This document shows, one piece after another, positions 1 through 12,584 of a stretch of DNA of 64,000 nucleotides; position 1 is the stretch's first letter; every line of letters starts with the position of its first letter. Under the pieces are notes generated by a model. That model had not been told where the DNA came from. It saw only the letters and a program-made list of their open reading frames with translations, and did not search any database. A program made the position numbers and the translations under genes. Source of the DNA: Mariniblastus sp. (GTDB taxonomy: Bacteria; Planctomycetota; Planctomycetia; Pirellulales; Pirellulaceae). The stretch is taken from positions 19-64,018 of the forward strand of contig JANNWZ010000154.1 of assembly GCA_031409295.1 (NCBI GenBank), written 5' to 3'.

Positions 1-3000
1 TGTACAAGTTGCCGACGGCGTGAACACCACCGCCAACGCGGGCACCGCCAGTAACGGTGTTGCCAGTGACATCGACTCGATTTAACGCAGCAATACCGGT
101 CGACTGTTCAACGAGTATTCCTCCGCCATCGTTGCTAATCGAGCCGCCGGTGATTCTCACATCGGTCAACGCAAGGCTGCCCGTAGCTCCATCCACTTCA
201 ATCGCGCGGTCGATTCCACCGCCGCTAATAATCGTGCTGGTCATGCCAGCACCGAAGATGGTCACCGTTGTCTGTATGTCAAAGTCGCCTGTCAAGCTGC
301 CGTCCTCGCCTGTTCCAGCGATTGAGATCGTATACGTTCCGGTATCTAGAAAGATTCCGCCGCCACCTGCGGTGTTATTGGATGCGATCACTGCTTCGCG
401 AAGTGAGATCTTGCCGTCGGTTCCTTTGTTTGCTAACAGGTTCGCTATTGAGGTCGTGGTGCCGTCGACGACATCGCTAAACGTATCGACAATGAGTGCC
501 GACGCGTTAGCTGTTGTGCTACTAAACTCGGATGAGTTACCGGTTGCCACATTCGTCGCCGTCGCCGTGATATTGGCTCCGACAGCAACCGTGGCGCTGA
601 ATTGCTCGACGAACGATGCGTTTCCGCTGGCGTCGGTATGAACATTTCGAAAACCCAGGTAAGTCTGACCTTCGTCGCCGCTGGTGTTCGCATAAAACTC
701 GACGCGAAAGGTCGTGTTAGCGAGACTGTTAATTGTGCCGGACACTGCAAACTTGCCACTGGCGTTGATGAAGGCGCCCGTTAGTACGGGAAAGTTTTGT
801 AGGTTGTTCGCACCGGTATCGGCATCGCCCGCGTCGTTGGCGGTCACGCCGGTTGTGCCCAAGTCGATGCCAAGTCCAGCATTTCCATAAATCGAGTTAC
901 CGTACATGGCGTTGCCGGTGCCGGTGCCGGTAATGGCAATTCCGGCTGTGCTGCTTCCGCCGGTCCCAGAGTTGGTGATCGTATTGCCTTGTCCAGTCGC
1001 AGTTCCGCCAATCGTGTTGTTAGAGGCAGTGCTAAGAATCTGAATTCCGTAACCCGTATTCCCGGTGGTGACGGAACCGGTTGAATCGCGACCGATAAAA
1101 TTTCCTTGAATTATCGTCCCAGAAGAAACTCCATTGAGCGAAATTCCATTGCCTGTGTTTCCGAGGATGACGTTGTCGATGATGCTCGTGTTATCGCCGC
1201 CAGATGTGATTCGCACGCCATCACCGGCGTTGCTTAGTACAGTCGAACCGTTGGCTCCCAAACCGATCCAGTTGTTGCGAATGATATTGCCGTCGCTTGG
1301 CTCGGAAGCAATCTCAATTGCTTCACCGCCAGTCGTCCCACCGATAATATTGCGATGCGCGGTAGTCAAGCCGCCGATCGTATTGAACGTCGCCCCGCTC
1401 TCGATTCTAACGCCGTGAGTAGTGTTACCCAGAGCGGTGTTGCCCGTTGCGGATGTTCCAATGTAGTTGCCGGCGACCGTGTTATTGCTGGCGCTGGCAC
1501 CCGATAGGTTGATGCCAAAGGTGCTATTGCCGCTGATGATATTGCGATCGAAACTTCCTGTGCCACCGACGGTGTTGTTGGAAGACAGGAGGGTGATCCC
1601 AGAACCTTGATTGGCAATCACAGCCGTACCGGCTGCGTTCAGACCAATGGTGTTTCCTTGAATCGTGGTGCTGGAAGAAGTGGCGTCTGCATAAACTCCG
1701 AAGGAAGCCGTTCCCGATGTTCCAGTACCGGAGATGACGTTTCCAGCACCGCTGGTCGAACCACCGAGTGTATTCCCCGAAGCGGACCAGAACCCGACTC
1801 CGTACCACTGGTTTCCAAGGTCCGCCGAGCCAGTGTTGCTGACTCCAATGTAGTTGCCCAGGATCGTATTGGACGAACCGTTCCAGACCGAGACACCAAT
1901 ATTGTTGTTTCCGGAAATGACGTTGCGATTGGCAGTCGAGGTACCACCAATCGTATTGCTGGAACCGCCTGCGATGTTGATTCCAATATCGTTTCCTGCG
2001 GCAGCCGTGCCGGCTTGTGTTGTTCCGATGTAGTTGCCGACGATCAGGTTGCTAGAGCTTTGGATCTCGATGCCATCACCGGTAAAGCTGCGAATGACGA
2101 GACCGCGGATCGTGCTGCCGCTGCTGCCTGCCGTTAATCGTAAACCGTCGGTATAAGTACTGTTGCCGTTCAAAACGATTAGCGGCTGTCCTGAGTATCC
2201 TGATTGCGTTGTTGCGTCGATGGTGACGACGTGATCGATATCTGCTAATTGTGCAGTTGTTAGCGTGATCGTTTGTACGCCCGTACTAATATTGAAAACG
2301 ATCGTATCGGCACCTGCGTTTGCTTTGGCATCGATGAGGGCTTGGCGGAATGAGCCGGCACCGCTGTCATTGGTGTTGGTGACGGTGTAGGTTGCAAGCA
2401 GCCCGCCGTAGGATTCTTGGAAGTGGAGGCCGAAGGCGATTTCGGTTTCGATGGTGGCGGCGGGCTTCCAGCCGGCCGATTCAATGTCGATGGAATTCAC
2501 AGAATGGTAGCCGATGCCACTGGAATTCACAGGCTGGAAGCCTATGCCACTGACATACTCCAAGCTCCAATCGCCGCCGCGAGAAAGATCGCCGGTTTTG
2601 TCCGTCGAGGCGGCTACGTCGGCGTTGGTTAATCGAGCAACCGTGTCAATAAACAATTGACCCTGTGGTCCGGCGGCGACGTCGCAACCGTAGATGAGAA
2701 TATCACCAGATTCGTTCAGCGCCCTACCCCAAGCCTGCAAGTCGGCCACGTGGCTTTGGATATTTCCAGCAGTTAACCAGGAGTCGCCCAGCTGGATCAT
2801 GCCATCCGCACCGTGGGAGACAATATGAATCGCGTCGAGGTTGGTGTATTGGGTCAAGGCGTTGTTGATTTGCTCGAAACCGCCTTGGCCCTCCTCCAGA
2901 ACAACAAAGGAGATCGATCGACCCAACGAGTGGGCTTGGAATTCCAGGTCGGCAATCAATGTTTCAGAATTGTATAGGCCGGCTTGGACGAAGGCCAATT

Positions 3001-3505
3001 CGTAGTGCGAACTATAGGTCAGCGCTGGTGGAATGGCGGCTGACGTCAAATGAGTTTCCGCGATGGTTGAATTCAGGCTGGAAGTCTCCCCGGTCAATTC
3101 GAACTGCTGGATTCCTGACGTAGATAATTCGACGTTGGCAACTCCGTCGTCAGCCACTGTCAATTCGCCGGTAGGCCGGTTGGCATCGTTCGGCAGCACA
3201 TTGATCGAATGCAATTCGGCGGGTGGCCAAAACGCGCCACCGGTTATGAATCCAGTGTCAAATGCCTGCACTTGATCAGACAGTTGAAGCAAATGATTGA
3301 TTTGCTGATCAACTTGCCCGCCGTTGTCCGGCACTTGGTCGGGAACGAATAGGCTCGATAGCCCGGTAGCATCAAATAGGATGCGGTCTTCCAAAGATTC
3401 CAATAAAACGGACTTCAGCAATTGTTCCGTCGGTGGCGTGGGGCTGAACGAGCTGACCATGAAGTGCCAACCGTGCTGAAAGAGGCTATTTAAGGACGGG
3501 TTCAT
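1..3505 (-). CDS. Giant surface/secreted protein (N-terminal part; runs off the window's left edge): LEPR-XLL-like motif, DUF4347 domain, parallel beta-helix repeats, CSLREA-like motif
   Basis: Absent from the ORF track because there is no stop in the window. Manual minus-strand translation from ATG at 3505 gives MNPSLNSLF...LLESLEDRILFDATG..., then DUF4347 hallmarks (IHIVSHGADG, DILIYGCDVAAG, VAASTDKTG...GGDWSLE), TYTVTNTNDSGAGSFRQAL, many GN(Y/F/W)IG / NTIGG / RNVISGN repeats, NNLQNFPVLT and GKISLREAVIASN. The frame is consistent at both ends and at spot checks in the middle. Confidence 0.9.
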   Translation of the reverse strand, partial: MNPSLNSLFQHGWHFMVSSFSPTPPTEQLLKSVLLESLEDRILFDATGLSSLFVPDQVPDNGGQVDQQINHLLQLSDQVQAFDTGFITGGAFWPPAELHSINVLPNDANRPTGELTVADDGVANVELSTSGIQQFELTGETSSLNSTIAETHLTSAAIPPALTYSSHYELAFVQAGLYNSETLIADLEFQAHSLGRSISFVVLEEGQGGFEQINNALTQYTNLDAIHIVSHGADGMIQLGDSWLTAGNIQSHVADLQAWGRALNESGDILIYGCDVAAGPQGQLFIDTVARLTNADVAASTDKTGDLSRGGDWSLEYVSGIGFQPVNSSGIGYHSVNSIDIESAGWKPAATIETEIAFGLHFQESYGGLLATYTVTNTNDSGAGSFRQALIDAKANAGADTIVFNISTGVQTITLTTAQLADIDHVVTIDATTQSGYSGQPLIVLNGNSTYTDGLRLTAGSSGSTIRGLVIRSFTGDGIEIQSSSNLIVGNYIGTTQAGTAAAGNDIGINIAGGSSNTIGGTSTANRNVISGNNNIGVSVWNGSSNTILGNYIGVSNTGSADLGNQWYGVGFWSASGNTLGGSTSGAGNVISGTGTSGTASFGVYADATSSSTTIQGNTIGLNAAGTAVIANQGSGITLLSSNNTVGGTGSFDRNIISGNSTFGINLSGASASNNTVAGNYIGTSATGNTALGNTTHGVRIESGATFNTIGGLTTAHRNIIGGTTGGEAIEIASEPSDGNIIRNNWIGLGANGSTVLSNAGDGVRITSGGDNTSIIDNVILGNTGNGISLNGVSSGTIIQGNFIGRDSTGSVTTGNTGYGIQILSTASNNTIGGTATGQGNTITNSGTGGSSTAGIAITGTGTGNAMYGNSIYGNAGLGIDLGTTGVTANDAGDADTGANNLQNFPVLTGAFINASGKFAVSGTINSLANTTFRVEFYANTSGDEGQTYLGFRNVHTDASGNASFVEQFSATVAVGANITATATNVATGNSSEFSSTTANASALIVDTFSDVVDGTTTSIANLLANKGTDGKISLREAVIASNNTAGGGGIFLDTGTYTISIAGTGEDGSLTGDFDIQTTVTIFGAGMTSTIISGGGIDRAIEVDGATGSLALTDVRITGGSISNDGGGILVEQSTGIAALNRVDVTGNTVTGGARVGGGVHAVGNLY
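2454..2550. repeat. Planctomycete-type REP/REPIN palindromic element embedded in frame in the DUF4347 coding sequence
   Basis: The arms GGCTTCCAGCC (2463-2473) and GGCTGGAAGCC (2532-2542) are perfect reverse complements. There is also a 30-bp imperfect tandem duplication, tggaattcacagaatggtagccgatgccac / tggaattcacaggctggaagcctatgccac (2491-2550). Confidence 0.75.
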
Positions 3506-4080
3506 CGAATATTGGCAGTTTAAAGGTACGAGGTTTTTGTTTGCGCCGAACAATACTGGCGAGCAGCCGATTGGCACCCTAAAAGTTGATGAAGCGGAAT
3601 TTGCGCAGTCTGTTCCGGTCGAACTTTACCCCACGGATTGCGACGTGTGAGACGGGTCAGGAAAAAAATAGGGAACCGGTAAACTTTGCCGATTGGAATG
3701 TGCTGATCGTACGGCTAGCACGCGTTGAGTGCCGTCCGAATCGTTCTCCGATAGCACGGTTTAGTTTGGCGAGCTCAAGCAATGGAAACTCTGAGGTTGG
3801 ATGGCAAGGAGATACTGCGCCTCGCCAGGAAAACGAATCGAGGATGCTCAATTCGCTGCAGCAATGTCCGGGACCAGGCTGATTTCTCCGTCTCCTTGCC
3901 GAGAGTGTCAGAATTGGCAATTGCTAGCCAGCAGTTTGTAAAACTATTCGGTTTGTATTGTTTGTCGTGTTCCTTCGAACCGAAAACGGGCGCGAACTCG
4001 CTTTCCCTATTATCCGCACGACACGGATTGGGCGAATAACAGACAGACGCGATAAGCCAATTGTGCTGGTGGAGATCATT

Positions 4081-6477
4081 GTGCCTTCTAAATCAATCAC
4101 GACGAAATATACTGTGGCAACCACCGTACTGTTTGGTTGTATGTTTGCCGGCTCAGAAACCTTCGCCCAGTCGCCGACACTTCAACCGGCAAACTCAACG
4201 GTATTCTCTGGGCGGCCAATTCAGTTTCCTTTAATGGATTCCGCTAGTAAAGTTCCAGCCAAGGCGCCAACGATCCCCAACGCCGCCCAGTTGGAATTAT
4301 CGTTCCAGAGTCTACCGCCGCTTCCGAATCCAGGTGCTGTGCCATCGGCTCAAGATCCAGCGGCGTTGCAAGGCCGATCGCCGTTTCAAAATCTATCAGG
4401 GATTCAGGAACCACTTACGTTTCAGGATCTTCCAAAGTTTCAAGATCTTCCGCAGCTTCAAACACCTCCGGTCGTTCCTGTCGCGAAGAAGCAGTTCGAT
4501 TTTACAAACGACTTTGCCCAAGCCTACCAGAAAATCGGAACTGCACCGCCAGTATCAAACCCACCCGAGTCATCGCCACTGCGAAACCAGTTTGGGCCAC
4601 AACATTCGCCCGAATCCGTCTCGGCTCACAAAAACGAGACGGTGGTGGACGCAACGGAATTGCCGTCACTCGCCCCGACAGTGCCCGCCGTCCCGCCAAT
4701 AAACGATCGTATTGCCAGACGAACCGACGCGGACGCCGCGGCCGATGATTTCTCACACCATCGCGATGAATCCGGCGAACAAGGCGCTAAATCCGGCCTA
4801 CAAAGCGATAAATCCAGTGATGCACCGGTAGCCGTTGAATTGGATGAAGTCGTCAAATCGACTCCCAATGCGATCGCTGCGACACCTGTCAATCAATTCG
4901 ATCCAGCGACGTGGAACGCCGATCCGTTGTGGTGGAAACAAGTCGTCAATCAGGCTTTGAATCCTGACAATAAAACGCAAACGATCGACACGAATACGCT
5001 GGTCTTGGAGGCTTTAAAGAACTCTCCTCGAATTCAAGCGATCAGTCAGACCCCCTTGATTCGCGAATTGCAGGTCATCGAGGCCGATTCAGATTTTGAT
5101 CCCGTTTCCTTTGTGCGAAGTAATTTTGAGGATCGCAATGACCCGGTTGGCAACACGTTGACGACGGGTGGTGCGCCTTTTCTCAAAGACAACATTTGGA
5201 GCGGTGAATTTGGGCTGCGTAAGAAAACCCGAACGGGTGCGTCCGTTCAAATGAGCGAACGGCTGGGCTTCAAAAACAGTAACTCGACGTTTTTTCTGCC
5301 GCAAGATCAGGGTACAGCCACGTTGGCTTTGAATGTCACACAGCCGTTGATGCGCGGTCGTGGAAAGTACTACAACCAAAGTCAGATTTTGATCGCCCAA
5401 GCGACCGGGGGTGCCGCCTGGAATACGTTTAGCAATGAACTGCAAGACGAATTGCAAGAGATCACGCAGGCGTATTGGAGATTGTATTATGATCGCAGTC
5501 TGTATTTGCAGATGAAACGCAATGTCGAGCGGGGCGAACAAATTCTGCTGATGTTGGAAGGCCGCAGCGAACTGGATTCACTGCCCAGCCAAATAGCGCG
5601 CGCCCGATCGGCGGTCCAGTCCCGTAAAACCGACCTCGCCAATGCGTTCCGTGACGTGCGCAACGCGGAAACCGAGATTCGCCGTCGGATTGCCGATCGC
5701 GAGTGGTTGGCGGCGCAGTCGATCGAGTTGCTGCCGGTCGAACTGCCTCAAGCTGAACCCTTTGAAATCCCACTTGAGCAGGTAGTCTTGACTGCGTTGG
5801 AACAGCGTCTGGAAATCAAAGAAGTCCTGCAACGGGCGAAGATCGCGGGGATTCAGCGCGATGTCAGCACCAATGAACTGTTGCCGGAATTGTCATTGTT
5901 GATGGGCACTTACGTCAGTGCACTGAAAGGGGAATCGGCGCTGGGCCAAGCGATTACCGGTCAGTTTGGCGTCGCGCCCGGTTACAACTTTGGTGTGCAG
6001 TTTGAAATGCCCTACCAAAATCGGAGTGCCCGCAGCCGGTTGGCCCAACAAAAACTCCAGGTGGCGAAAATCAAGGCGGAAGTCGACGAGACGATCCAGA
6101 AAGTCGTCGCGGAATCGCAAATATCTCTGCGGCGGGTAAATTCCGCGGGACAGACCTTGCTCGCCGCTGAGCAAGCGATCATTGCCTCCCGCGCCGATTT
6201 GCAACAGAATTATCAACGCTGGGAAGCGTTCGGATTGGTGGAAGGAGATCTTGCTGACGGTCAAAACCCGACAACTTTACTTAATCAAGTGCTGGATTCC
6301 CAGGAACGACTGGCGGCGGCAGAATTAATCTATGCCCAAGCGGAATTGGACCTCAAAAATTCTGAGACTGCCTTGCAACGAACGATGGGGACACTACTGA
6401 TGCACGAAAATATCGACTTCAGTATGCTCACCAGTGGCGATCAGCCGGAAATGAAGTTGGAGAAAAAAGAAGACTGA
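4081..6477 (+). CDS. TolC-family outer-membrane efflux/secretion channel with a long Pro/Gln-rich N-terminal extension
   Basis: ORF 3958-6477; GTG at 4081 precedes a signal-peptide-like stretch. The C-terminal ~480 aa has OEP features: ALKNSPRIQA, LNVTQPLMRGRG, ELQEITQAYWRLYY, NELLPELSL, GVQFEMPYQNRSARS, VLDSQERLAAAE, LQRTMGTLL. Confidence 0.88.
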   Translation: MPSKSITTKYTVATTVLFGCMFAGSETFAQSPTLQPANSTVFSGRPIQFPLMDSASKVPAKAPTIPNAAQLELSFQSLPPLPNPGAVPSAQDPAALQGRSPFQNLSGIQEPLTFQDLPKFQDLPQLQTPPVVPVAKKQFDFTNDFAQAYQKIGTAPPVSNPPESSPLRNQFGPQHSPESVSAHKNETVVDATELPSLAPTVPAVPPINDRIARRTDADAAADDFSHHRDESGEQGAKSGLQSDKSSDAPVAVELDEVVKSTPNAIAATPVNQFDPATWNADPLWWKQVVNQALNPDNKTQTIDTNTLVLEALKNSPRIQAISQTPLIRELQVIEADSDFDPVSFVRSNFEDRNDPVGNTLTTGGAPFLKDNIWSGEFGLRKKTRTGASVQMSERLGFKNSNSTFFLPQDQGTATLALNVTQPLMRGRGKYYNQSQILIAQATGGAAWNTFSNELQDELQEITQAYWRLYYDRSLYLQMKRNVERGEQILLMLEGRSELDSLPSQIARARSAVQSRKTDLANAFRDVRNAETEIRRRIADREWLAAQSIELLPVELPQAEPFEIPLEQVVLTALEQRLEIKEVLQRAKIAGIQRDVSTNELLPELSLLMGTYVSALKGESALGQAITGQFGVAPGYNFGVQFEMPYQNRSARSRLAQQKLQVAKIKAEVDETIQKVVAESQISLRRVNSAGQTLLAAEQAIIASRADLQQNYQRWEAFGLVEGDLADGQNPTTLLNQVLDSQERLAAAELIYAQAELDLKNSETALQRTMGTLLMHENIDFSMLTSGDQPEMKLEKKED

Positions 6478-6645: not shown

Positions 6646-7479
6646 ATGAAATCCATTTGCCTTGCACAGCGTCCATTTTCGTTCAACCAAGCGATACTGT
6701 TGGTTGTGGGATTCTGCTTGTTCCTGTTTGCCTTGACATCCGTTGCCGAAGCACAGATCGATGGTTTTACCGAACCGTTTCGCCGCATTGAATTGTCCAG
6801 CGACGAATCGGGCGCCATTGCTGAACTGTTGGTCGAGGAAGGTCAATCGCTCGAAGAAAATGAACCGGTAGCCCGACTCGATGCGCGTGTTCAGGCATTG
6901 CAATTGGAAATCGCGGAACAGTTGGCTCACAGTCAGAGTCAATTGATCGCGGCCGAAGAGGGATTGAGTAAACGACAAGCAATCAGTGATAAATTGGCCC
7001 AGCTAAAACACGAAGGGCACGCCAGTCAATCAGAAATTATTCGTGCTGAGATGGAATTGTCGCTGGCCAAAGCAAAACTATTATCGGCTAACGAGGATTT
7101 GGCAGTCGGAGAAATTGAACGCCGTCGAGCCGCAGTACAACTTGAACGTCGCACCATTGTCGCCCCATTCAAATCCATCGTAGCCAAGATTCACGCACGC
7201 GAAGGAGAGTTTTTGTCGCCCCTGAGACCGGAAATCGTCACGCTGATCCAGGTCGACAAGTTGATCGCCAAATTCGCTGTACCGAGCACGCAAGTTACCT
7301 CGTTTGAAGTTGGCAAAAAATTCAATCTCCAATTGGGGAGTGACCGAACGGTACTGGCGGAAGTATTGAGCGTGGGCGTCGAAACGGATGCTCAAAGTGG
7401 AACGGTTGAAGTCAAATTAGTTATTGAGAATCCGGAACTGGAGTTTCGCAGCGGCGAACTCTGCACCTTGACTATCTAA
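6646..7479 (+). CDS. Membrane fusion protein / periplasmic adaptor (HlyD/RND MFP family)
   Basis: N-terminal hydrophobic segment, lipoyl half-motifs (GAIAELLVEEGQSLEENEPVARLD; IVAPFKSIVAKIHAREGE), coiled-coil hairpin and C-terminal beta-barrel (DAQSGTVEVKLVIENPELEFRSG). Confidence 0.88.
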   Translation: MKSICLAQRPFSFNQAILLVVGFCLFLFALTSVAEAQIDGFTEPFRRIELSSDESGAIAELLVEEGQSLEENEPVARLDARVQALQLEIAEQLAHSQSQLIAAEEGLSKRQAISDKLAQLKHEGHASQSEIIRAEMELSLAKAKLLSANEDLAVGEIERRRAAVQLERRTIVAPFKSIVAKIHAREGEFLSPLRPEIVTLIQVDKLIAKFAVPSTQVTSFEVGKKFNLQLGSDRTVLAEVLSVGVETDAQSGTVEVKLVIENPELEFRSGELCTLTI

Positions 7480-7553: not shown

Positions 7554-9470
7554 ATGCTGAACTCAGGGACGAGTCCGATTAACAGGGTACTGCCGATCAA
7601 GGTGGTTCGATCGACAGCGGCCCCTTCGTCGGCGTCAGCGCCGCAGTTTGAGAATCAGACTCTGGTGCGGCAATTGGAATTGGCGATTGCTACCAGCAGC
7701 TCGCTCAACCATTTAATGTCCCAGTTGAATCGAATCATTGGTGAACAGACGGAGTGTCTGGCGTTGTGGATCGCTGCGCGCGACGAACAAGGTCAGTTCG
7801 CAGACTTTCAGCCGCTGTCAGAAGAATCGTCATTCGCCGTCTGGGATTTGGCACGCGAAGTAGTTCCCTCGTTGGTCGGCCATCTGCTTCAATCCAGTCA
7901 AATCTGCTCGACGCCTCTCCCCTGCAGTTCTTTAGTTCAGCTGGTCGCGGCGCCTCTACGCTCGCAATCCAAGCCCGAGACACCCATCGATTTCGTATTG
8001 TTGGGATGTTTTGAAAGCAGCAATCAATCCACCCTGCGATTGCAATGGCTTATGGGATTGGCGACTCAAGCGATCACCAACTGGTTTCAGGCTCAAGCCT
8101 TGACTCATGTGGAAACCAAACAGCGTGGCCTATCGGATTCACTGAAACTGATTCGCGACCTGGATCGGACGACCAGTCGAACGCAAGCGGCAATCCTGAT
8201 CGTGAACCAGTTGCGCCGGCTGTTGAGCGTCGAACAGGTGGCGTTGACACTCAACGGGCAGCTGATCGCCGTCTCGGATGTCGAACAAATCGATCAGTTC
8301 AACGAATCCAATAAACTGATTCAGGCGGCCTGCAATCAAACTTTGCGGACGGGAGAACCCGTGGCGTTTTTGAATTCAACTGCACAAGTGACACCGGCTC
8401 AATTGGCGCTGGCAGACTACTGTCGCGCACATCGTATCGAAGCCTGTTTGAATCTGCCACTCAGTCTGTCCGTGGGCGGAACCAATCAGGCCACGCCAGA
8501 AACAATCGGCGGACTGTTGATCGCCGGTTCCGCAGATCGATTGGGAAACCGCTCATTTGTTGAGTACCTGGTGCAACTGACGGGGTTGATTGGTGGGCAT
8601 TTGGAAGTCGTGTTGCGGGCCAATCGAAGCTTCAAAGAAATCGCCGTTCAGAAAATCCAAACACTGCGGAAACATCGTTGGAGAAAAGTTGCCTTGTTGG
8701 CGGCGTCGATCGTCGCAATTGTGTTGTCGATGCCAGTTCCCTATCGAATCGCTTGCGATTGTGAAATTCAACCCGTTTTACGCCGGTTCGTCGCCGCTCC
8801 CTATGACGGAATTCTGGAACGAGGGCTGGTGAAAAACGGCGAAATTGTGGCGAAAAATCAATTATTGGCACAACTCGATGGACGCAATCTGCGAATCGAG
8901 TTGGCCGGTTTGCAAGCGGAATTGGGAGGGGCGAAAAAACGACGCGACGCCGCATTGGCCGGCGGCGATATCGCCCAATCGCAGATCGCCCGGAGTGAAA
9001 CCGAACGCTTGGAAGCAAAAATATCGTTGTTGGAGCAACGCACGCTCAATTTGGAAGTGCGCAGTCCGATCGACGGAATCATTATCAGTGGCGATTTGGA
9101 GAAAGTCGAAGGTGCGCCCTTAGAAATGGGACAAACACTGTTTGAAGTCGCTCCAGCGGAACAAATGGTTGTCGAAATCGCCATCCCGGAAACGGAAATT
9201 CAATATGCCAAACCCAACATGATTGTGACGCTGAAACTGAATTCATTTCCGTTTCGCACTTGGTCGGGAAAGATTGAGAGTATCCATCCGAGCGCCGAAG
9301 TTGTCGACAGCGAAAGTGTGTTTGTGGCTCAGGTCATCATCGACAATTCTGAAAATTTGTTGCGACCAGGCATGGAAGGATCGGCGAAAGTAAATTCCGA
9401 GTGGTCGCCGCTGGGCTGGAATCTGTTCCACCGCTCATGGGAAGCAGTTCGTTACTGGACGATTTGGTAA
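7554..9470 (+). CDS. GAF-like domain(s) + single TM + HlyD-type MFP fusion
   Basis: The N-terminal ~370 aa has GAF-like segments (LALWIAARDEQG; EACLNLPLSL...IGGLLIAG), then a TM (VALLAASIVAIVLSMPV), then MFP motifs (RFVAAPYDGILERGLVKNGEIV, VRSPIDGIIISGD, NSENLLRPGMEGSAKV). Confidence 0.82.
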   Translation: MLNSGTSPINRVLPIKVVRSTAAPSSASAPQFENQTLVRQLELAIATSSSLNHLMSQLNRIIGEQTECLALWIAARDEQGQFADFQPLSEESSFAVWDLAREVVPSLVGHLLQSSQICSTPLPCSSLVQLVAAPLRSQSKPETPIDFVLLGCFESSNQSTLRLQWLMGLATQAITNWFQAQALTHVETKQRGLSDSLKLIRDLDRTTSRTQAAILIVNQLRRLLSVEQVALTLNGQLIAVSDVEQIDQFNESNKLIQAACNQTLRTGEPVAFLNSTAQVTPAQLALADYCRAHRIEACLNLPLSLSVGGTNQATPETIGGLLIAGSADRLGNRSFVEYLVQLTGLIGGHLEVVLRANRSFKEIAVQKIQTLRKHRWRKVALLAASIVAIVLSMPVPYRIACDCEIQPVLRRFVAAPYDGILERGLVKNGEIVAKNQLLAQLDGRNLRIELAGLQAELGGAKKRRDAALAGGDIAQSQIARSETERLEAKISLLEQRTLNLEVRSPIDGIIISGDLEKVEGAPLEMGQTLFEVAPAEQMVVEIAIPETEIQYAKPNMIVTLKLNSFPFRTWSGKIESIHPSAEVVDSESVFVAQVIIDNSENLLRPGMEGSAKVNSEWSPLGWNLFHRSWEAVRYWTIW

Positions 9471-11704
9471 TGATTTCGCCAGACAATCCACCGCCGTCAA
9501 CCGACCCACGTGAGCAATGGCTCGATGCGCGACTGACGTTAAGGTCCGAATTGAAGTTTGACGTGCGGACGATTGGCACTGAAACGGTCGTTGTCGTTGA
9601 AGATCCGGTGCGCAGCAAATTTTTTCAAATCGGGACATCGGAGTACCGACTATTGGCTGCGCTGGATGGTCAAAAAACCGTGCGCGAAATTCTGGAACAA
9701 GTCGTTCCAATTTCCGGTGTTACCAATCCAACAACGATTTCACCTGCAATCGACAATAGGGTAACGCCGATGGACGAAAGCCAGGCGATCCGGGTCAGCC
9801 AATGGTTAGTGCAGAATAACCTGGCGTACAACCCCACCGTTGATAACAGTAAACGGATGGACGAACAATCGCGACAGTCTCAACGGGCAAAACTTTTTGG
9901 CTGGCTCAATCCGATTTCCTGTAAGATCAAACTCTGCAATCCGAATCGAATACTAGGGCGTTTACAGCCGTTTACGCAATGGTTTTTCTCACCGTGGGCA
10001 TTGTTAGTCTGGTTCGTGGTGGGTGGCTATGCCATGAACATTTTGTATTCCGATTGGGACAAAATGGGCTCGGCGTCGGTCGGAATTTTCTCGGGCTATA
10101 GCTGGATCTGGTTGCTGCTGAGTTGGATCGGGTTAAAAATAATTCATGAAACCTCCCACGCTGTGGCCTGCCGACGATACGGTGGTGAGGTTCCCGAAGC
10201 GGGCGTGCTGTTGTTGCTGTTTACTCCGATGGCTTACGTCAATGTCACGTCGATGTGGCGATTTGCCAACCGTTGGCAGCGCATCGTCGTGTCGGTGGCG
10301 GGGATGTATGCGGAACTGTTTGTTTCGTTCCTGGCGTTGATACTCTGGCGACATGATCCCGGTGTAATCGGAGACGTGGCGTTCAAGGTCTTCATGATGG
10401 CCAGTGTTACGACGATTTTGTTCAACGCCAATCCACTGATGCGTTTTGACGGGTACTTCATCCTCTCGGACTTGCTGAATATTCCTAATTTGTACACCAA
10501 AGGAACGCGTTGGTTTGGGGATCGATTCAAGCACTATTTTTTTGGCACTCCGAAGACTCCCAATATTTATCTGGTTGCCGAACGGCGTTTCGTGCAGGTC
10601 TATGGCGTACTGGCTTGGTTTTGGAAAACGACGATCAGTCTGAGTTTGATCATCGGAGCTGGAGTGTTGTTTCATGGCGCCGGCATAATTCTGGCGGCAC
10701 TGGGCGTGATTTTGTGGTACGGGATGCCGGCGTGGCAACAAATTCGCTGGTTTCGAGCGGCCCGTGTCAATCGAACTATTAACCAACAGCGTCTGGCAAC
10801 CAGTTGTCTTGCGAGCGGATTACTGCTGATCGGAATGTTCACCGTCTTGCCTGCGCCAGGCACAAAATCGGCCCCCGCCATCGTTCGATATTCGGACGAG
10901 CAGGTCTTGCGCGCGGCCGCCGATGGATTCATTCGCCAGATTTTGGTGCGCAATGGCCAGGCGGTAACGCGTGGCGAAACCCTGATCGTGTTGGAGAATC
11001 CGCAATTGGTTTTGGACGTCGAGGAATTGGAGCGACTGGCCGCAGAAGCAACCATTGAAGCGCGAATAAAAACCCGGGCCGGTGAATTGGTCCTCGCACA
11101 AGTCGCAGCGGAAAGGAACGCCAGCCTGTTAACCCAGTTGGCCGAAAAGCGGCAATTGGTTGCCCAGCAAACGGTCACAGCGCCATTCGATGGATTTGTG
11201 TTTCAACGAAAACTCGAAAACCGAATCGACAGTTTCGCCCGGGCCGGAGAAGCACTGCTGTCGATTGCCCACGCCGAAACCAAGGAGGTAGTGGTCTCGG
11301 TCGATCAACGCGATCTGGAATCGATTCAGGGTAAAGAAGGGATTTACCTGAGAGTCGCATTTCCGGGACAACCGCTATTGAGGTCGAAGTTGACTCGCGT
11401 GAATCCTCGCGTTTCCAACCGTCTGCAACACGATTCATGGGGTGCAAGCCTGGGTGGCCCCTTGCCAGTCCAGCCGGTGGCAGACGAGTCTCAGCGACAG
11501 GAAGTACAATTTGAATTATTAGATCCTCGGTTTACCATGGATCTGGAACTGGAACCGGCGATGAGCGAATCGCTATTTGCCGGTCAACGTGGTCGAGCTT
11601 TTTTTGTGACGAATCGACAATCGCTAGGCAGTTACCTTTATTTGGCAACAGCCGACTGGCTAAAACAGAAGATCGAACTGGCGATTCAAACAGCGACATT
11701 TTGA
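9470..11704 (+). CDS. PqqD/RRE-like N-domain + site-2 protease (M50) membrane domain + HlyD-type MFP fusion
   Basis: TAATG overlap with the upstream stop at 9468-9472. HETSH (HExxH, 10145-10159) and NANPLMRFDG (10424-10453) are present, with multiple TM segments. The C-terminal MFP has LRAAADGFIRQILVRNGQAVTRGETL and VTAPFDGFV. Confidence 0.85.
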   Translation: MISPDNPPPSTDPREQWLDARLTLRSELKFDVRTIGTETVVVVEDPVRSKFFQIGTSEYRLLAALDGQKTVREILEQVVPISGVTNPTTISPAIDNRVTPMDESQAIRVSQWLVQNNLAYNPTVDNSKRMDEQSRQSQRAKLFGWLNPISCKIKLCNPNRILGRLQPFTQWFFSPWALLVWFVVGGYAMNILYSDWDKMGSASVGIFSGYSWIWLLLSWIGLKIIHETSHAVACRRYGGEVPEAGVLLLLFTPMAYVNVTSMWRFANRWQRIVVSVAGMYAELFVSFLALILWRHDPGVIGDVAFKVFMMASVTTILFNANPLMRFDGYFILSDLLNIPNLYTKGTRWFGDRFKHYFFGTPKTPNIYLVAERRFVQVYGVLAWFWKTTISLSLIIGAGVLFHGAGIILAALGVILWYGMPAWQQIRWFRAARVNRTINQQRLATSCLASGLLLIGMFTVLPAPGTKSAPAIVRYSDEQVLRAAADGFIRQILVRNGQAVTRGETLIVLENPQLVLDVEELERLAAEATIEARIKTRAGELVLAQVAAERNASLLTQLAEKRQLVAQQTVTAPFDGFVFQRKLENRIDSFARAGEALLSIAHAETKEVVVSVDQRDLESIQGKEGIYLRVAFPGQPLLRSKLTRVNPRVSNRLQHDSWGASLGGPLPVQPVADESQRQEVQFELLDPRFTMDLELEPAMSESLFAGQRGRAFFVTNRQSLGSYLYLATADWLKQKIELAIQTATF

Positions 11705-11759: not shown

Positions 11760-12584
11760 ATGACAAGCACTCCCTCCCAGCCTGACCATCAATCCCTGAT
11801 CAAAAAAATTGAAGCGCTGCGTCCTTGGCATCACGATATTCAGATTACTTCAGACCTTGGTACTGGCGAAGTATTTTCCCCCACCCGGGCGTTATTACCG
11901 AAGGACAATGAAGGTGTCAGCTTGATCTCGCCACGCGATCGTTTTTTGCAAACGATCGATGGGTTGTATCCCAATACCATGCAGGGAAAACGCTTTCTCG
12001 ATTGCGCCTGTAATGCGGGCGGCTATTGTTTTTGGACGCGGGAACGAGATGCGGAGTTGTCGGTTGGTTTCGATGTTCGCGAACACTGGATCAACCAAGC
12101 CCGGTTTGTTCAACAACATCGTCAGGTGGCGCCGGTGGATCGAGTCGAATTCCACGTACTGGATTTGTATGACCTGCCGAAAAAAGATATCGGCCGGTTT
12201 GACATGACTTACTTCAGCGGCATTTTTTATCACTTGCCAGATCCGATTACCGGGTTGAAACTGGCGGCGGATATCACGGACGATATTTTTGTTTTGAATA
12301 CTGCCGTCAAGATTGATGAAAACAATCCGACCGGCCTAACGATGTCCCATGAAAGTCGGACCTTGGTGATGTCGGGAGTACATGAGTTGGCGTGGTTCCC
12401 CAATGGCCCGGAATGCATGTACGAGTTGTTGCGTTGGTTGGGATTCGTGGAATTCAAGATTACCCTCAACATCTCCAAGCGCGATATGTTGCGTCAGCGT
12501 GTCGAGATGATCGCCTCGCGGGAAAAAGGTCGTTTGACTGGCATCAAAGGCGATCCATTCCCACCGCCACGAGCTCGCCCGTAG
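11760..12584 (+). CDS. Class I SAM-dependent methyltransferase (CmoB/DUF1698-like)
   Basis: PWHHDI N-motif, GKRFLDCACNAGGY motif I, GFDVRE, GRFDMTYFSGIFYHLPDP. Confidence 0.8.
   Translation: MTSTPSQPDHQSLIKKIEALRPWHHDIQITSDLGTGEVFSPTRALLPKDNEGVSLISPRDRFLQTIDGLYPNTMQGKRFLDCACNAGGYCFWTRERDAELSVGFDVREHWINQARFVQQHRQVAPVDRVEFHVLDLYDLPKKDIGRFDMTYFSGIFYHLPDPITGLKLAADITDDIFVLNTAVKIDENNPTGLTMSHESRTLVMSGVHELAWFPNGPECMYELLRWLGFVEFKITLNISKRDMLRQRVEMIASREKGRLTGIKGDPFPPPRARP

Follow-up and report, generated by a model that had tools for sequence, protein, structure and literature searches.

A fusion of an RRE-type domain, a site-2 protease and a membrane fusion protein in Mariniblastus sp., and its probable part in the secretion of giant LEPR-XLL-leader proteins

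Many of the giant surface proteins of Planctomycetes and several other phyla have a LEPR-XLL-type start and no recognisable Sec signal peptide, and no account was found in the searchable literature of how the LEPR-XLL giants leave the cell or of what the motif is for. This question is raised by a gene of Mariniblastus sp. (assembly GCA_031409295.1, contig JANNWZ010000154.1), which was analysed within a stretch of 64,000 nucleotides, referred to below as the window. The gene (9470..11704, + strand; 744 aa) joins a recognition domain of the type known as the RRE, that is, the recognition element of peptides that are made on the ribosome and modified after translation (RiPPs), to a zinc protease embedded in the membrane and a secretion adaptor in the periplasm. 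What would a protein of this composition recognise, cut and help to export? On the reading favoured here it is probably the signal-recognition and leader-peptidase subunit of a type I-like, envelope-spanning secretion apparatus that lacks an ABC transporter and serves very large proteins with a LEPR-XLL leader. The architecture and the link to the cargo are well supported, and the mechanism, which is drawn by analogy with the daptide protease MpaP and with peptidase-containing ABC transporters (PCATs), is rated as somewhat better than an even prospect.

Domain architecture of the fusion protein

The open reading frame (ORF) of the fusion gene spans 9401-11704 (+), and its start is likely the ATG at 9470, which gives a product of 744 aa. 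The stop codon TAA of the upstream gene and this ATG overlap as TAATG; the upstream gene encodes a GAF-like domain joined to a membrane fusion protein (MFP) domain, and the fusion gene is translationally coupled to it. The first-pass annotation, which was made from the sequence alone, had described the product as a PqqD/RRE-like domain followed by an intact site-2 protease (S2P) and an MFP, and all of these parts were recovered in the searches reported here. The MFP part occupies residues 465-744 (10862..11704, +), where residues 472-651 scored above the Pfam gathering cut-offs for both HlyD_D23 (44.2, cut-off 30) and HlyD_3 (44.4, cut-off 22.2); these domains come after a transmembrane anchor, the last transmembrane helix being at residues 439-464. 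All three parts are retained in a family of more than 800 full-length members, whose only names are "HlyD family..." or "putative peptide zinc metalloprotease". The fusion is carried by at least 586 GTDB species, mostly Pirellulales, and also by Desulfobulbaceae, Beggiatoa, Nitrospinales and Chthoniobacter.

The N-terminal domain (about residues 21-118; 9530..9823, +) is an RRE/PqqD-type winged helix, as judged by fold search, profile alignment, Pfam matches in relatives and homology to the daptide protease. An AlphaFold2 (AF2) model of residues 18-170, which was generated from a 76-sequence alignment, had a predicted local distance difference test score (pLDDT) of 83, rising to ~95 across the first 60 residues. 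The succession of strands and helices that had been read from the sequence, in a quoted stretch beginning at residue 37, was borne out by this model, in which three or four beta-strands precede three helices (strands 12-18, 21-28 and 33-38; helices 39-47, 54-61 and 86-98). The Foldseek comparison with the PDB that the first-pass annotation had proposed as a check returned, as its first match, the lasso-peptide protein TbiB1 with bound leader (5v1v_A, prob 1.00, template modelling (TM) score 0.68, target-normalised), and the top five matches were all RRE:leader complexes (TbiB1 5v1v/5v1u and lasso B1 6jx3; prob 0.97-1.00, target-normalised TM-score 0.59-0.68). The RRE-bearing proteins CteB and SuiB ranked next, and TbiB1 again matched the N-terminal domain when a two-domain model (residues 18-470) was searched. 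When the N-domain alignment was compared by hhalign with one of 22 stand-alone PqqD proteins of the same phylum, the probability was 93% and the E-value 3.5e-7; the 64 aligned columns run from position 3 to position 67 of PqqD and take in the whole of that model. Among 151 Planctomycetota genomes searched in six frames, at least ten ORFs of 720-771 aa had an N-terminal match to Pfam PqqD (PF05402) that exceeded the cut-off, at 29-36 bits, and these were the same ORFs that were matched by the RRE-M50 profile (for example G162:C1:92736, G178:C1:1392060 and G066:C1:483006).

A single-sequence search with the N-domain against 1.8 billion representatives gave 363 matches at E<=0.001; the best 150 of the 363 were mostly proteins of ~700-800 aa, the others being shorter, with no other architecture among the matches listed. 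The best curated family for the whole protein was NF041824, the daptide intramembrane metalloprotease, with 146 bits over residues 47-417. Because this is well under the equivalog cut-off of 300, the fusion is placed in a different subfamily from the daptide peptidase. The N-domain alone matched the first ~118 positions of NF041824 (start 3-22, end 111-118) in seven of eight members, with E-values from 0.096 to 8.6e-9. Some results speak against an RRE: the Foldseek E-values for the domain were modest (0.014), the N-domain profile gave only a spurious 15-bit match among PDB sequences, and neither the window protein nor any of 38 close homologues matched PF05402 at E<=1. Taken by itself, the Pfam negative would argue against the assignment, but it is overturned by the fold search, the hhalign result and the PqqD matches in distant family members. 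One peculiarity of the domain is an insert of ~24 residues between RRE helices 2 and 3 (residues about 79-102; window 9704-9775, +). This VVPISGVTNPTTISPAIDNRVTPMDES-like insert is modelled with a pLDDT of 50-60, is specific to the lineage of the window and is missing in most homologues.

The middle of the protein (about residues 175-460; 9992..10849, +) is a seven-helix membrane domain with a site-2-protease core. Both catalytic motifs are intact and lie on the + strand exactly where they had been placed at first pass: the zinc-binding/catalytic motif HETSH at 10145..10159 (residues 226-230, with H226, E227 and H230), and NANPLMRFDG at 10424..10453 (residues 319-328), which is the third-ligand motif NxxPxxxxDG (D327). 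H226, E227, H230 and N319-G328 were invariant in 38 full-length homologues of 49-61% identity, and the motifs were invariant or nearly so in 55 homologues, down to 30% identity; since the catalytic residues are invariant across homologues, the HExxH is not a chance occurrence. The AF2 model of residues 18-470 had a pLDDT of 87.9 and a predicted TM-score (pTM) of 0.81, and the HETSH sits within its helix 212-236. When the protease region was searched with Foldseek, the S2P of M. jannaschii (MjS2P, 3b4r_A; E 7.9e-4, prob 1.00) and SpoIVFB (8vjl_A; prob 1.00) were recovered. The Pfam M50 model (PF02163) scored 21.8 bits on the window protein, under its gathering cut-off of 27.2, and matched all 38 aligned members at E<=1 (best 1.7e-10). 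Together, the motifs and the model point to an intact S2P fold, for which zinc-dependent intramembrane protease activity is predicted.

Seven long hydrophobic helices were modelled (about 175-194, 212-236, 268-295, 299-319, 369-400, 404-429 and 439-459), with a beta-hairpin after the HExxH helix and with K/R-rich loops at 237-267, 320-368 and 430-438. Because the MFP must be periplasmic, and given the parity of the helix count and the K/R-rich loops (positive-inside rule), the RRE would lie in the cytoplasm and the zinc site at the cytoplasmic leaflet, so that the helix ends at which the two catalytic motifs sit are predicted to be cytoplasmic, as they are in known S2Ps.

Candidate cargo and leader motif

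The candidate cargo is encoded divergently from the fusion cluster (2..3505, -) and is cut by the contig end. It is a giant protein with a DUF4347 domain (Pfam, 157 bits) and a right-handed beta-helix, and its first 60 residues contain no hydrophobic signal-peptide core. A LEPR-XLL-like stretch, LESLEDRILFDA, at residues 35-46 (3368..3403, -) is the candidate leader motif, and it was for this motif that the protein had been nominated as the substrate at first pass. The nomination is backed by conserved synteny, by the recurrence of the motif and by phyletic co-occurrence.

Synteny was assessed by comparing the ORFs of 82 related loci, from Planctomycetota, Desulfobulbaceae, Nitrospinales, Chthoniobacter and others, with the window proteins. 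The recurring genes were the five module proteins and the cargo only, the neighbours of the fusion gene being a GAF-HlyD protein (78 loci), a short HlyD protein (65), a TolC-like OEP (45), a DUF4347 giant (33) and a SecA-like protein of ~650 aa (22). The motif LE[DE]R[VI]L.[DS]A.P was present on the DUF4347 protein in 31 of the 33 DUF4347 loci, 19-134 residues in from where the protein is predicted to start. The consensus of the neighbours' leaders, L-x-L-x-x-L-E-[DE]-R-[VI]-[LM]-[FYM]-[DS]-A-[STV]-P-[LV], spans phyla; it includes Pro at +10 (29 of 32) and conserved Leu at -3 and -5, none of which formed part of the search pattern. Large ORFs bearing the motif occurred at 0.024 per kb in the loci, as against 0.004 per kb in the genome of the window organism, and were thus about six times denser. 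Within the loci the proteins that bear the motif range from 500 to more than 2500 aa in length, and none of 5213 short ORFs had it.

Across the organism's own genome, 23-24 ORFs carried an N-terminal motif, compared with 0-3 in shuffles, mostly of the canonical LxFExLExRxLLAG type. That type lies at residues 24-147 of large proteins with no obvious hydrophobic signal peptide (for example contig C84, 3395-5569; C96, 46581-53042; C146, 1-7145).

Co-occurrence was examined in 201 Planctomycetota genomes, 57 of which were matched by the RRE-M50 profile. The fusion was present in 15 of the 17 genomes with DUF4347 and in 42 of the 184 without it (Fisher P 1e-7), and in 34 of the 42 LEPR-XLL-positive genomes and 23 of the remaining 159 (Fisher P 5e-16), P values that overstate independence because the sampled genomes are related, which tells against the reading; the LEPR-XLL-positive genomes number 42 among the matches listed and 44 by the search total. 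The direction of the co-occurrence is unambiguous. All 20 genomes with a LEPR-XLL match at E<1e-3 had the fusion, 15 of 27 DUF4347 matches lay no more than 10 kb from a fusion gene, and several LEPR giants of 2400-7000 aa were found within a few kb of one (5105 aa in genome G126, 4839 aa in G109, 5819 aa in G149 and 2408 aa in G008). The apparatus appears to be dedicated to giants that have an N-terminal LEPR-XLL-type leader in place of a Sec signal peptide.

A separate observation concerns the DUF4347 domain of the cargo itself (window 2560-3060, -). Its sequences IHIVSHG and ILIYGCDVA provide a His-Gly and Cys pair, each member following a hydrophobic strand, like clan CD cysteine peptidases, and the domain may be self-processing.

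The proposed apparatus and its alternatives

Between the cargo gene and the fusion gene, and on the same strand as the latter, lie the genes for a TolC-like outer-membrane factor (3958..6477, +; Pfam OEP, 61.6 bits), a short MFP of 277 aa (6646..7479, +) and the 638-aa partner that consists of a cytoplasmic GAF-like N-domain, one transmembrane helix and an MFP (7554..9470, +); in a homologue of this last protein, from locus L026, the GAF domain was above its cut-off. An MFP and a TolC-like outer-membrane factor are thus encoded together, a type I-like trait. An ABC transporter is absent from the window cluster, and a crude motif scan, whose sensitivity is limited, picked out an ABC-like ORF in only five of the 82 loci. 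The SecA-like genes of ~650 aa encode SecA_DEAD, preprotein cross-linking and SecA P-loop domains. Those encoded within clusters are 635-668 aa long (L026, 4803-6710; L034, 4891-6897) and align to positions 18-610 of the 789 in the SecA model; because the alignment stops at ~610, they are without the C-terminal quarter of SecA.

The genome of the window organism has six M50-HlyD paralogues, four of them on contigs C59, C74, C81 and C95, and two short SecA-like genes, one an orphan (C156, 6494-8428) and one on C188. A second complete operon is found on C188 (66882-75942, -), in the order LEPR-motif protein (805 aa, N-terminal YQVLEDRRLLAV), SecA-like (626 aa), HlyD-like (686 aa) and M50-HlyD (761 aa). 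As the window cluster has no SecA-like gene and two are present on other contigs, the motor would act here in trans.

In the mechanism proposed, the RRE would bind the leader motif of the cargo by beta-strand addition, to beta-3 and against helix 3, as in RiPP RREs, and the adjacent S2P site would clip the leader at the cytoplasmic face, as has been proposed for MpaP in daptide biosynthesis. The fusion's own MFP, the short MFP and the GAF-MFP would jointly bridge to the OEP and form a duct. Translocation would be driven by the short SecA-like ATPase through its motor and preprotein-binding domains, and for the window cluster this partner would be supplied in trans by the genes on other contigs. 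The chance that the apparatus as a whole represents a distinct secretion system is substantial. The fuller proposal, of a distinct and unnamed class of double-membrane secretion in which an RRE reads the LEPR-XLL leader, an S2P clips it and a truncated SecA-like motor drives the protein N-terminus first through an MFP/TolC duct, without an ABC transporter and perhaps also without SecYEG, is put forward tentatively, its chances being judged a little short of even.

Several observations count against this reading. The fusion occurs without DUF4347 in 42 of the sampled genomes, so other cargo must exist, and a DUF4347 neighbour was found in only 33 of the 82 loci, though many contigs end early. 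The leader of the window cargo is marginal against the LEPR-XLL model NF012209 (cut-off 17 bits), scoring 11.8 by hmmscan and 17.1 in a six-frame genome search. A SecA-like gene is not present in cis in the window cluster or in its closest relatives (L001-L025), and no known inner-membrane channel was found among the recurring module genes of the 82 loci. The leader could also be read by the preprotein-binding domain of the SecA-like protein or by the GAF domains, not by the RRE.

The lack of an ABC transporter or other known channel is also what lends some credit to an alternative in which the M50 domain serves mainly as an inner-membrane scaffold or channel, proteolysis being secondary (for example, the clearing of stalled cargo) and the RRE only docking or gating the cargo. 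The fact that the domain is fused to an MFP implies that it takes a stoichiometric position in the conduit, and the M50 protein has been suggested as a pore former (PMC4452313). The catalytic H, E, H and D and the entire NANPLMRFDG block are nevertheless invariant down to 30% identity, which indicates selection on catalysis, and the nearest characterised relatives are leader peptidases. No S2P is known to conduct polypeptides. This alternative is considered unlikely.

Regulated intramembrane proteolysis, in which the RRE-like domain would bind a regulator (an anti-sigma factor or the GAF-HlyD partner) and the S2P would cut it, switching on secretion genes, is rated as improbable. The classical S2Ps RseP and SpoIVFB work in this way, the fold matches SpoIVFB, and a protein with a GAF sensor domain adjoins the fusion gene in nearly all loci; but the 82 loci share no conserved gene for a sigma or anti-sigma factor, the conserved N-terminal motif is on the cargo and not on a regulator, and the RRE-S2P relatives act on leaders.

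A role in the maturation and export of a small RiPP or bacteriocin, daptide-like and unrelated to the giant neighbour, is very improbable. Such a role would suit the daptide protease as the best curated match and the RRE as a hallmark of RiPP pathways; the score, however, is less than half of the NF041824 equivalog cut-off, the motif is found on large proteins and on none of the short ORFs, and no modification enzymes are conserved, the methyltransferase gene downstream of the fusion gene being absent from the other loci. An ordinary tripartite efflux pump for small molecules, with an MFP fused by chance to an unrelated protease, would account for the MFP and OEP components and is the least credible of all, given that the cluster has no conserved transporter of the RND, ABC or MFS type, that the three-way fusion is full-length in the whole of its large family and that linkage to giant leader-bearing proteins is strong.

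Relation to known systems and other features of the locus

Fusions of an RRE to an S2P are already known from daptide biosynthesis, where MpaP, a site-2 protease with an RRE fused at its N-terminus, was assigned the removal of a leader with the motif ELExMEAP (Ren et al. 2023, bioRxiv 10.1101/2023.03.08.531785). The window protein resembles MpaP/DapP (NF041824) in its N-terminal RRE and intramembrane M50 protease, the two being homologous over both domains, and the leader motifs of both systems are short and acidic (ELExMEAP in daptides, LE[DE]R..[DS]A.P here). Unlike the fusion, MpaP/DapP has no MFP domain and no TolC, MFP or SecA-like partners. Daptide substrates are tens of residues long and are encoded in a RiPP cluster, whereas the candidate cargo proteins here have 1000 to more than 7000 aa; and, unlike daptide clusters, the 82 loci show no conservation of an aminotransferase, a decarboxylase or short precursors.

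The gene module is likewise known. A module of a secondary SecA_DEAD protein, HlyD, GAF-HlyD, a weak-M50-HlyD protein and sometimes an OEP was described, and a type I-like secretion role proposed for it, by Kamneva, Poudel & Ward 2015 (PLoS One, PMC4452313), in which the M50 similarity is weak and no RRE/PqqD domain, cargo or leader motif is named; one carrier given there is Methylobacterium extorquens AM1 (META1p2399-2402). The window has the same gene module, with M50-HlyD, GAF-HlyD, HlyD and OEP in one operon, and differs in that its cluster is without the SecA-like gene, which stands in cis in 22 of the 82 related loci and in the C188 operon. A 2023 preprint independently tied truncated SecA proteins, in which SecA_DEAD and preprotein-binding domains are present without the scaffold and wing, to giant-protein export in Omnitrophota; the parallel is one of theme, and the system is a different one.

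As in PCATs and type I secretion, the recognition of an N-terminal leader, its cleavage and export would be coupled in one polypeptide and served by a duct of MFP and TolC-like proteins, which is here predicted from the genes. The difference from PCATs is that neither a C39 peptidase nor an ABC transporter is involved; the RRE would recognise, the zinc S2P would cut, and the SecA-like motor is the presumed source of energy. The beta3-alpha3 winged-helix fold of the recognition domain is shared with the lasso-peptide B1 proteins and PqqD. Those are soluble RiPP proteins of ~90 aa, whereas the domain described here, which has the insert of ~24 residues, is predicted to form the cytoplasmic head of a membrane protein of 744 aa.

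Literature searches on M50 with HlyD and Planctomycetes, on DUF4347 and on LEPR-XLL found nothing relevant, LEPR-XLL being mentioned only in passing. As far as this literature shows, what is new is the RRE in the module, the reading of the gene as a triple RRE-S2P-MFP fusion, and the LEPR-XLL/DUF4347 giants as cargo. With an RRE in the M50-HlyD protein, a leader on the adjoining giants and the co-occurrence of the two, the cargo of the module and the role of the motif become a single testable model. If it is true, the use of the RRE extends from RiPP biosynthesis to protein secretion, and the C39/ABC design of the PCATs has a zinc-protease/SecA-like counterpart.

Two other features of the locus may be recorded. 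Directly 3' of the fusion gene is a gene for a TIGR04290-like S-adenosylmethionine (SAM) methyltransferase (11760-12584, +), which was considered as a part of the system and rejected; because it is absent beside the fusion gene in all of the other 81 loci, it is probably unrelated. The TolC-like protein has an N-terminal extension of ~300 aa (window 3958-4900, +), of low complexity and rich in Pro, Ala and Gln, before the OEP repeats. The annotated TTG start of its gene at 3958 is probably too early and the true start internal, a signal-peptide-like stretch being located ~40 codons in.

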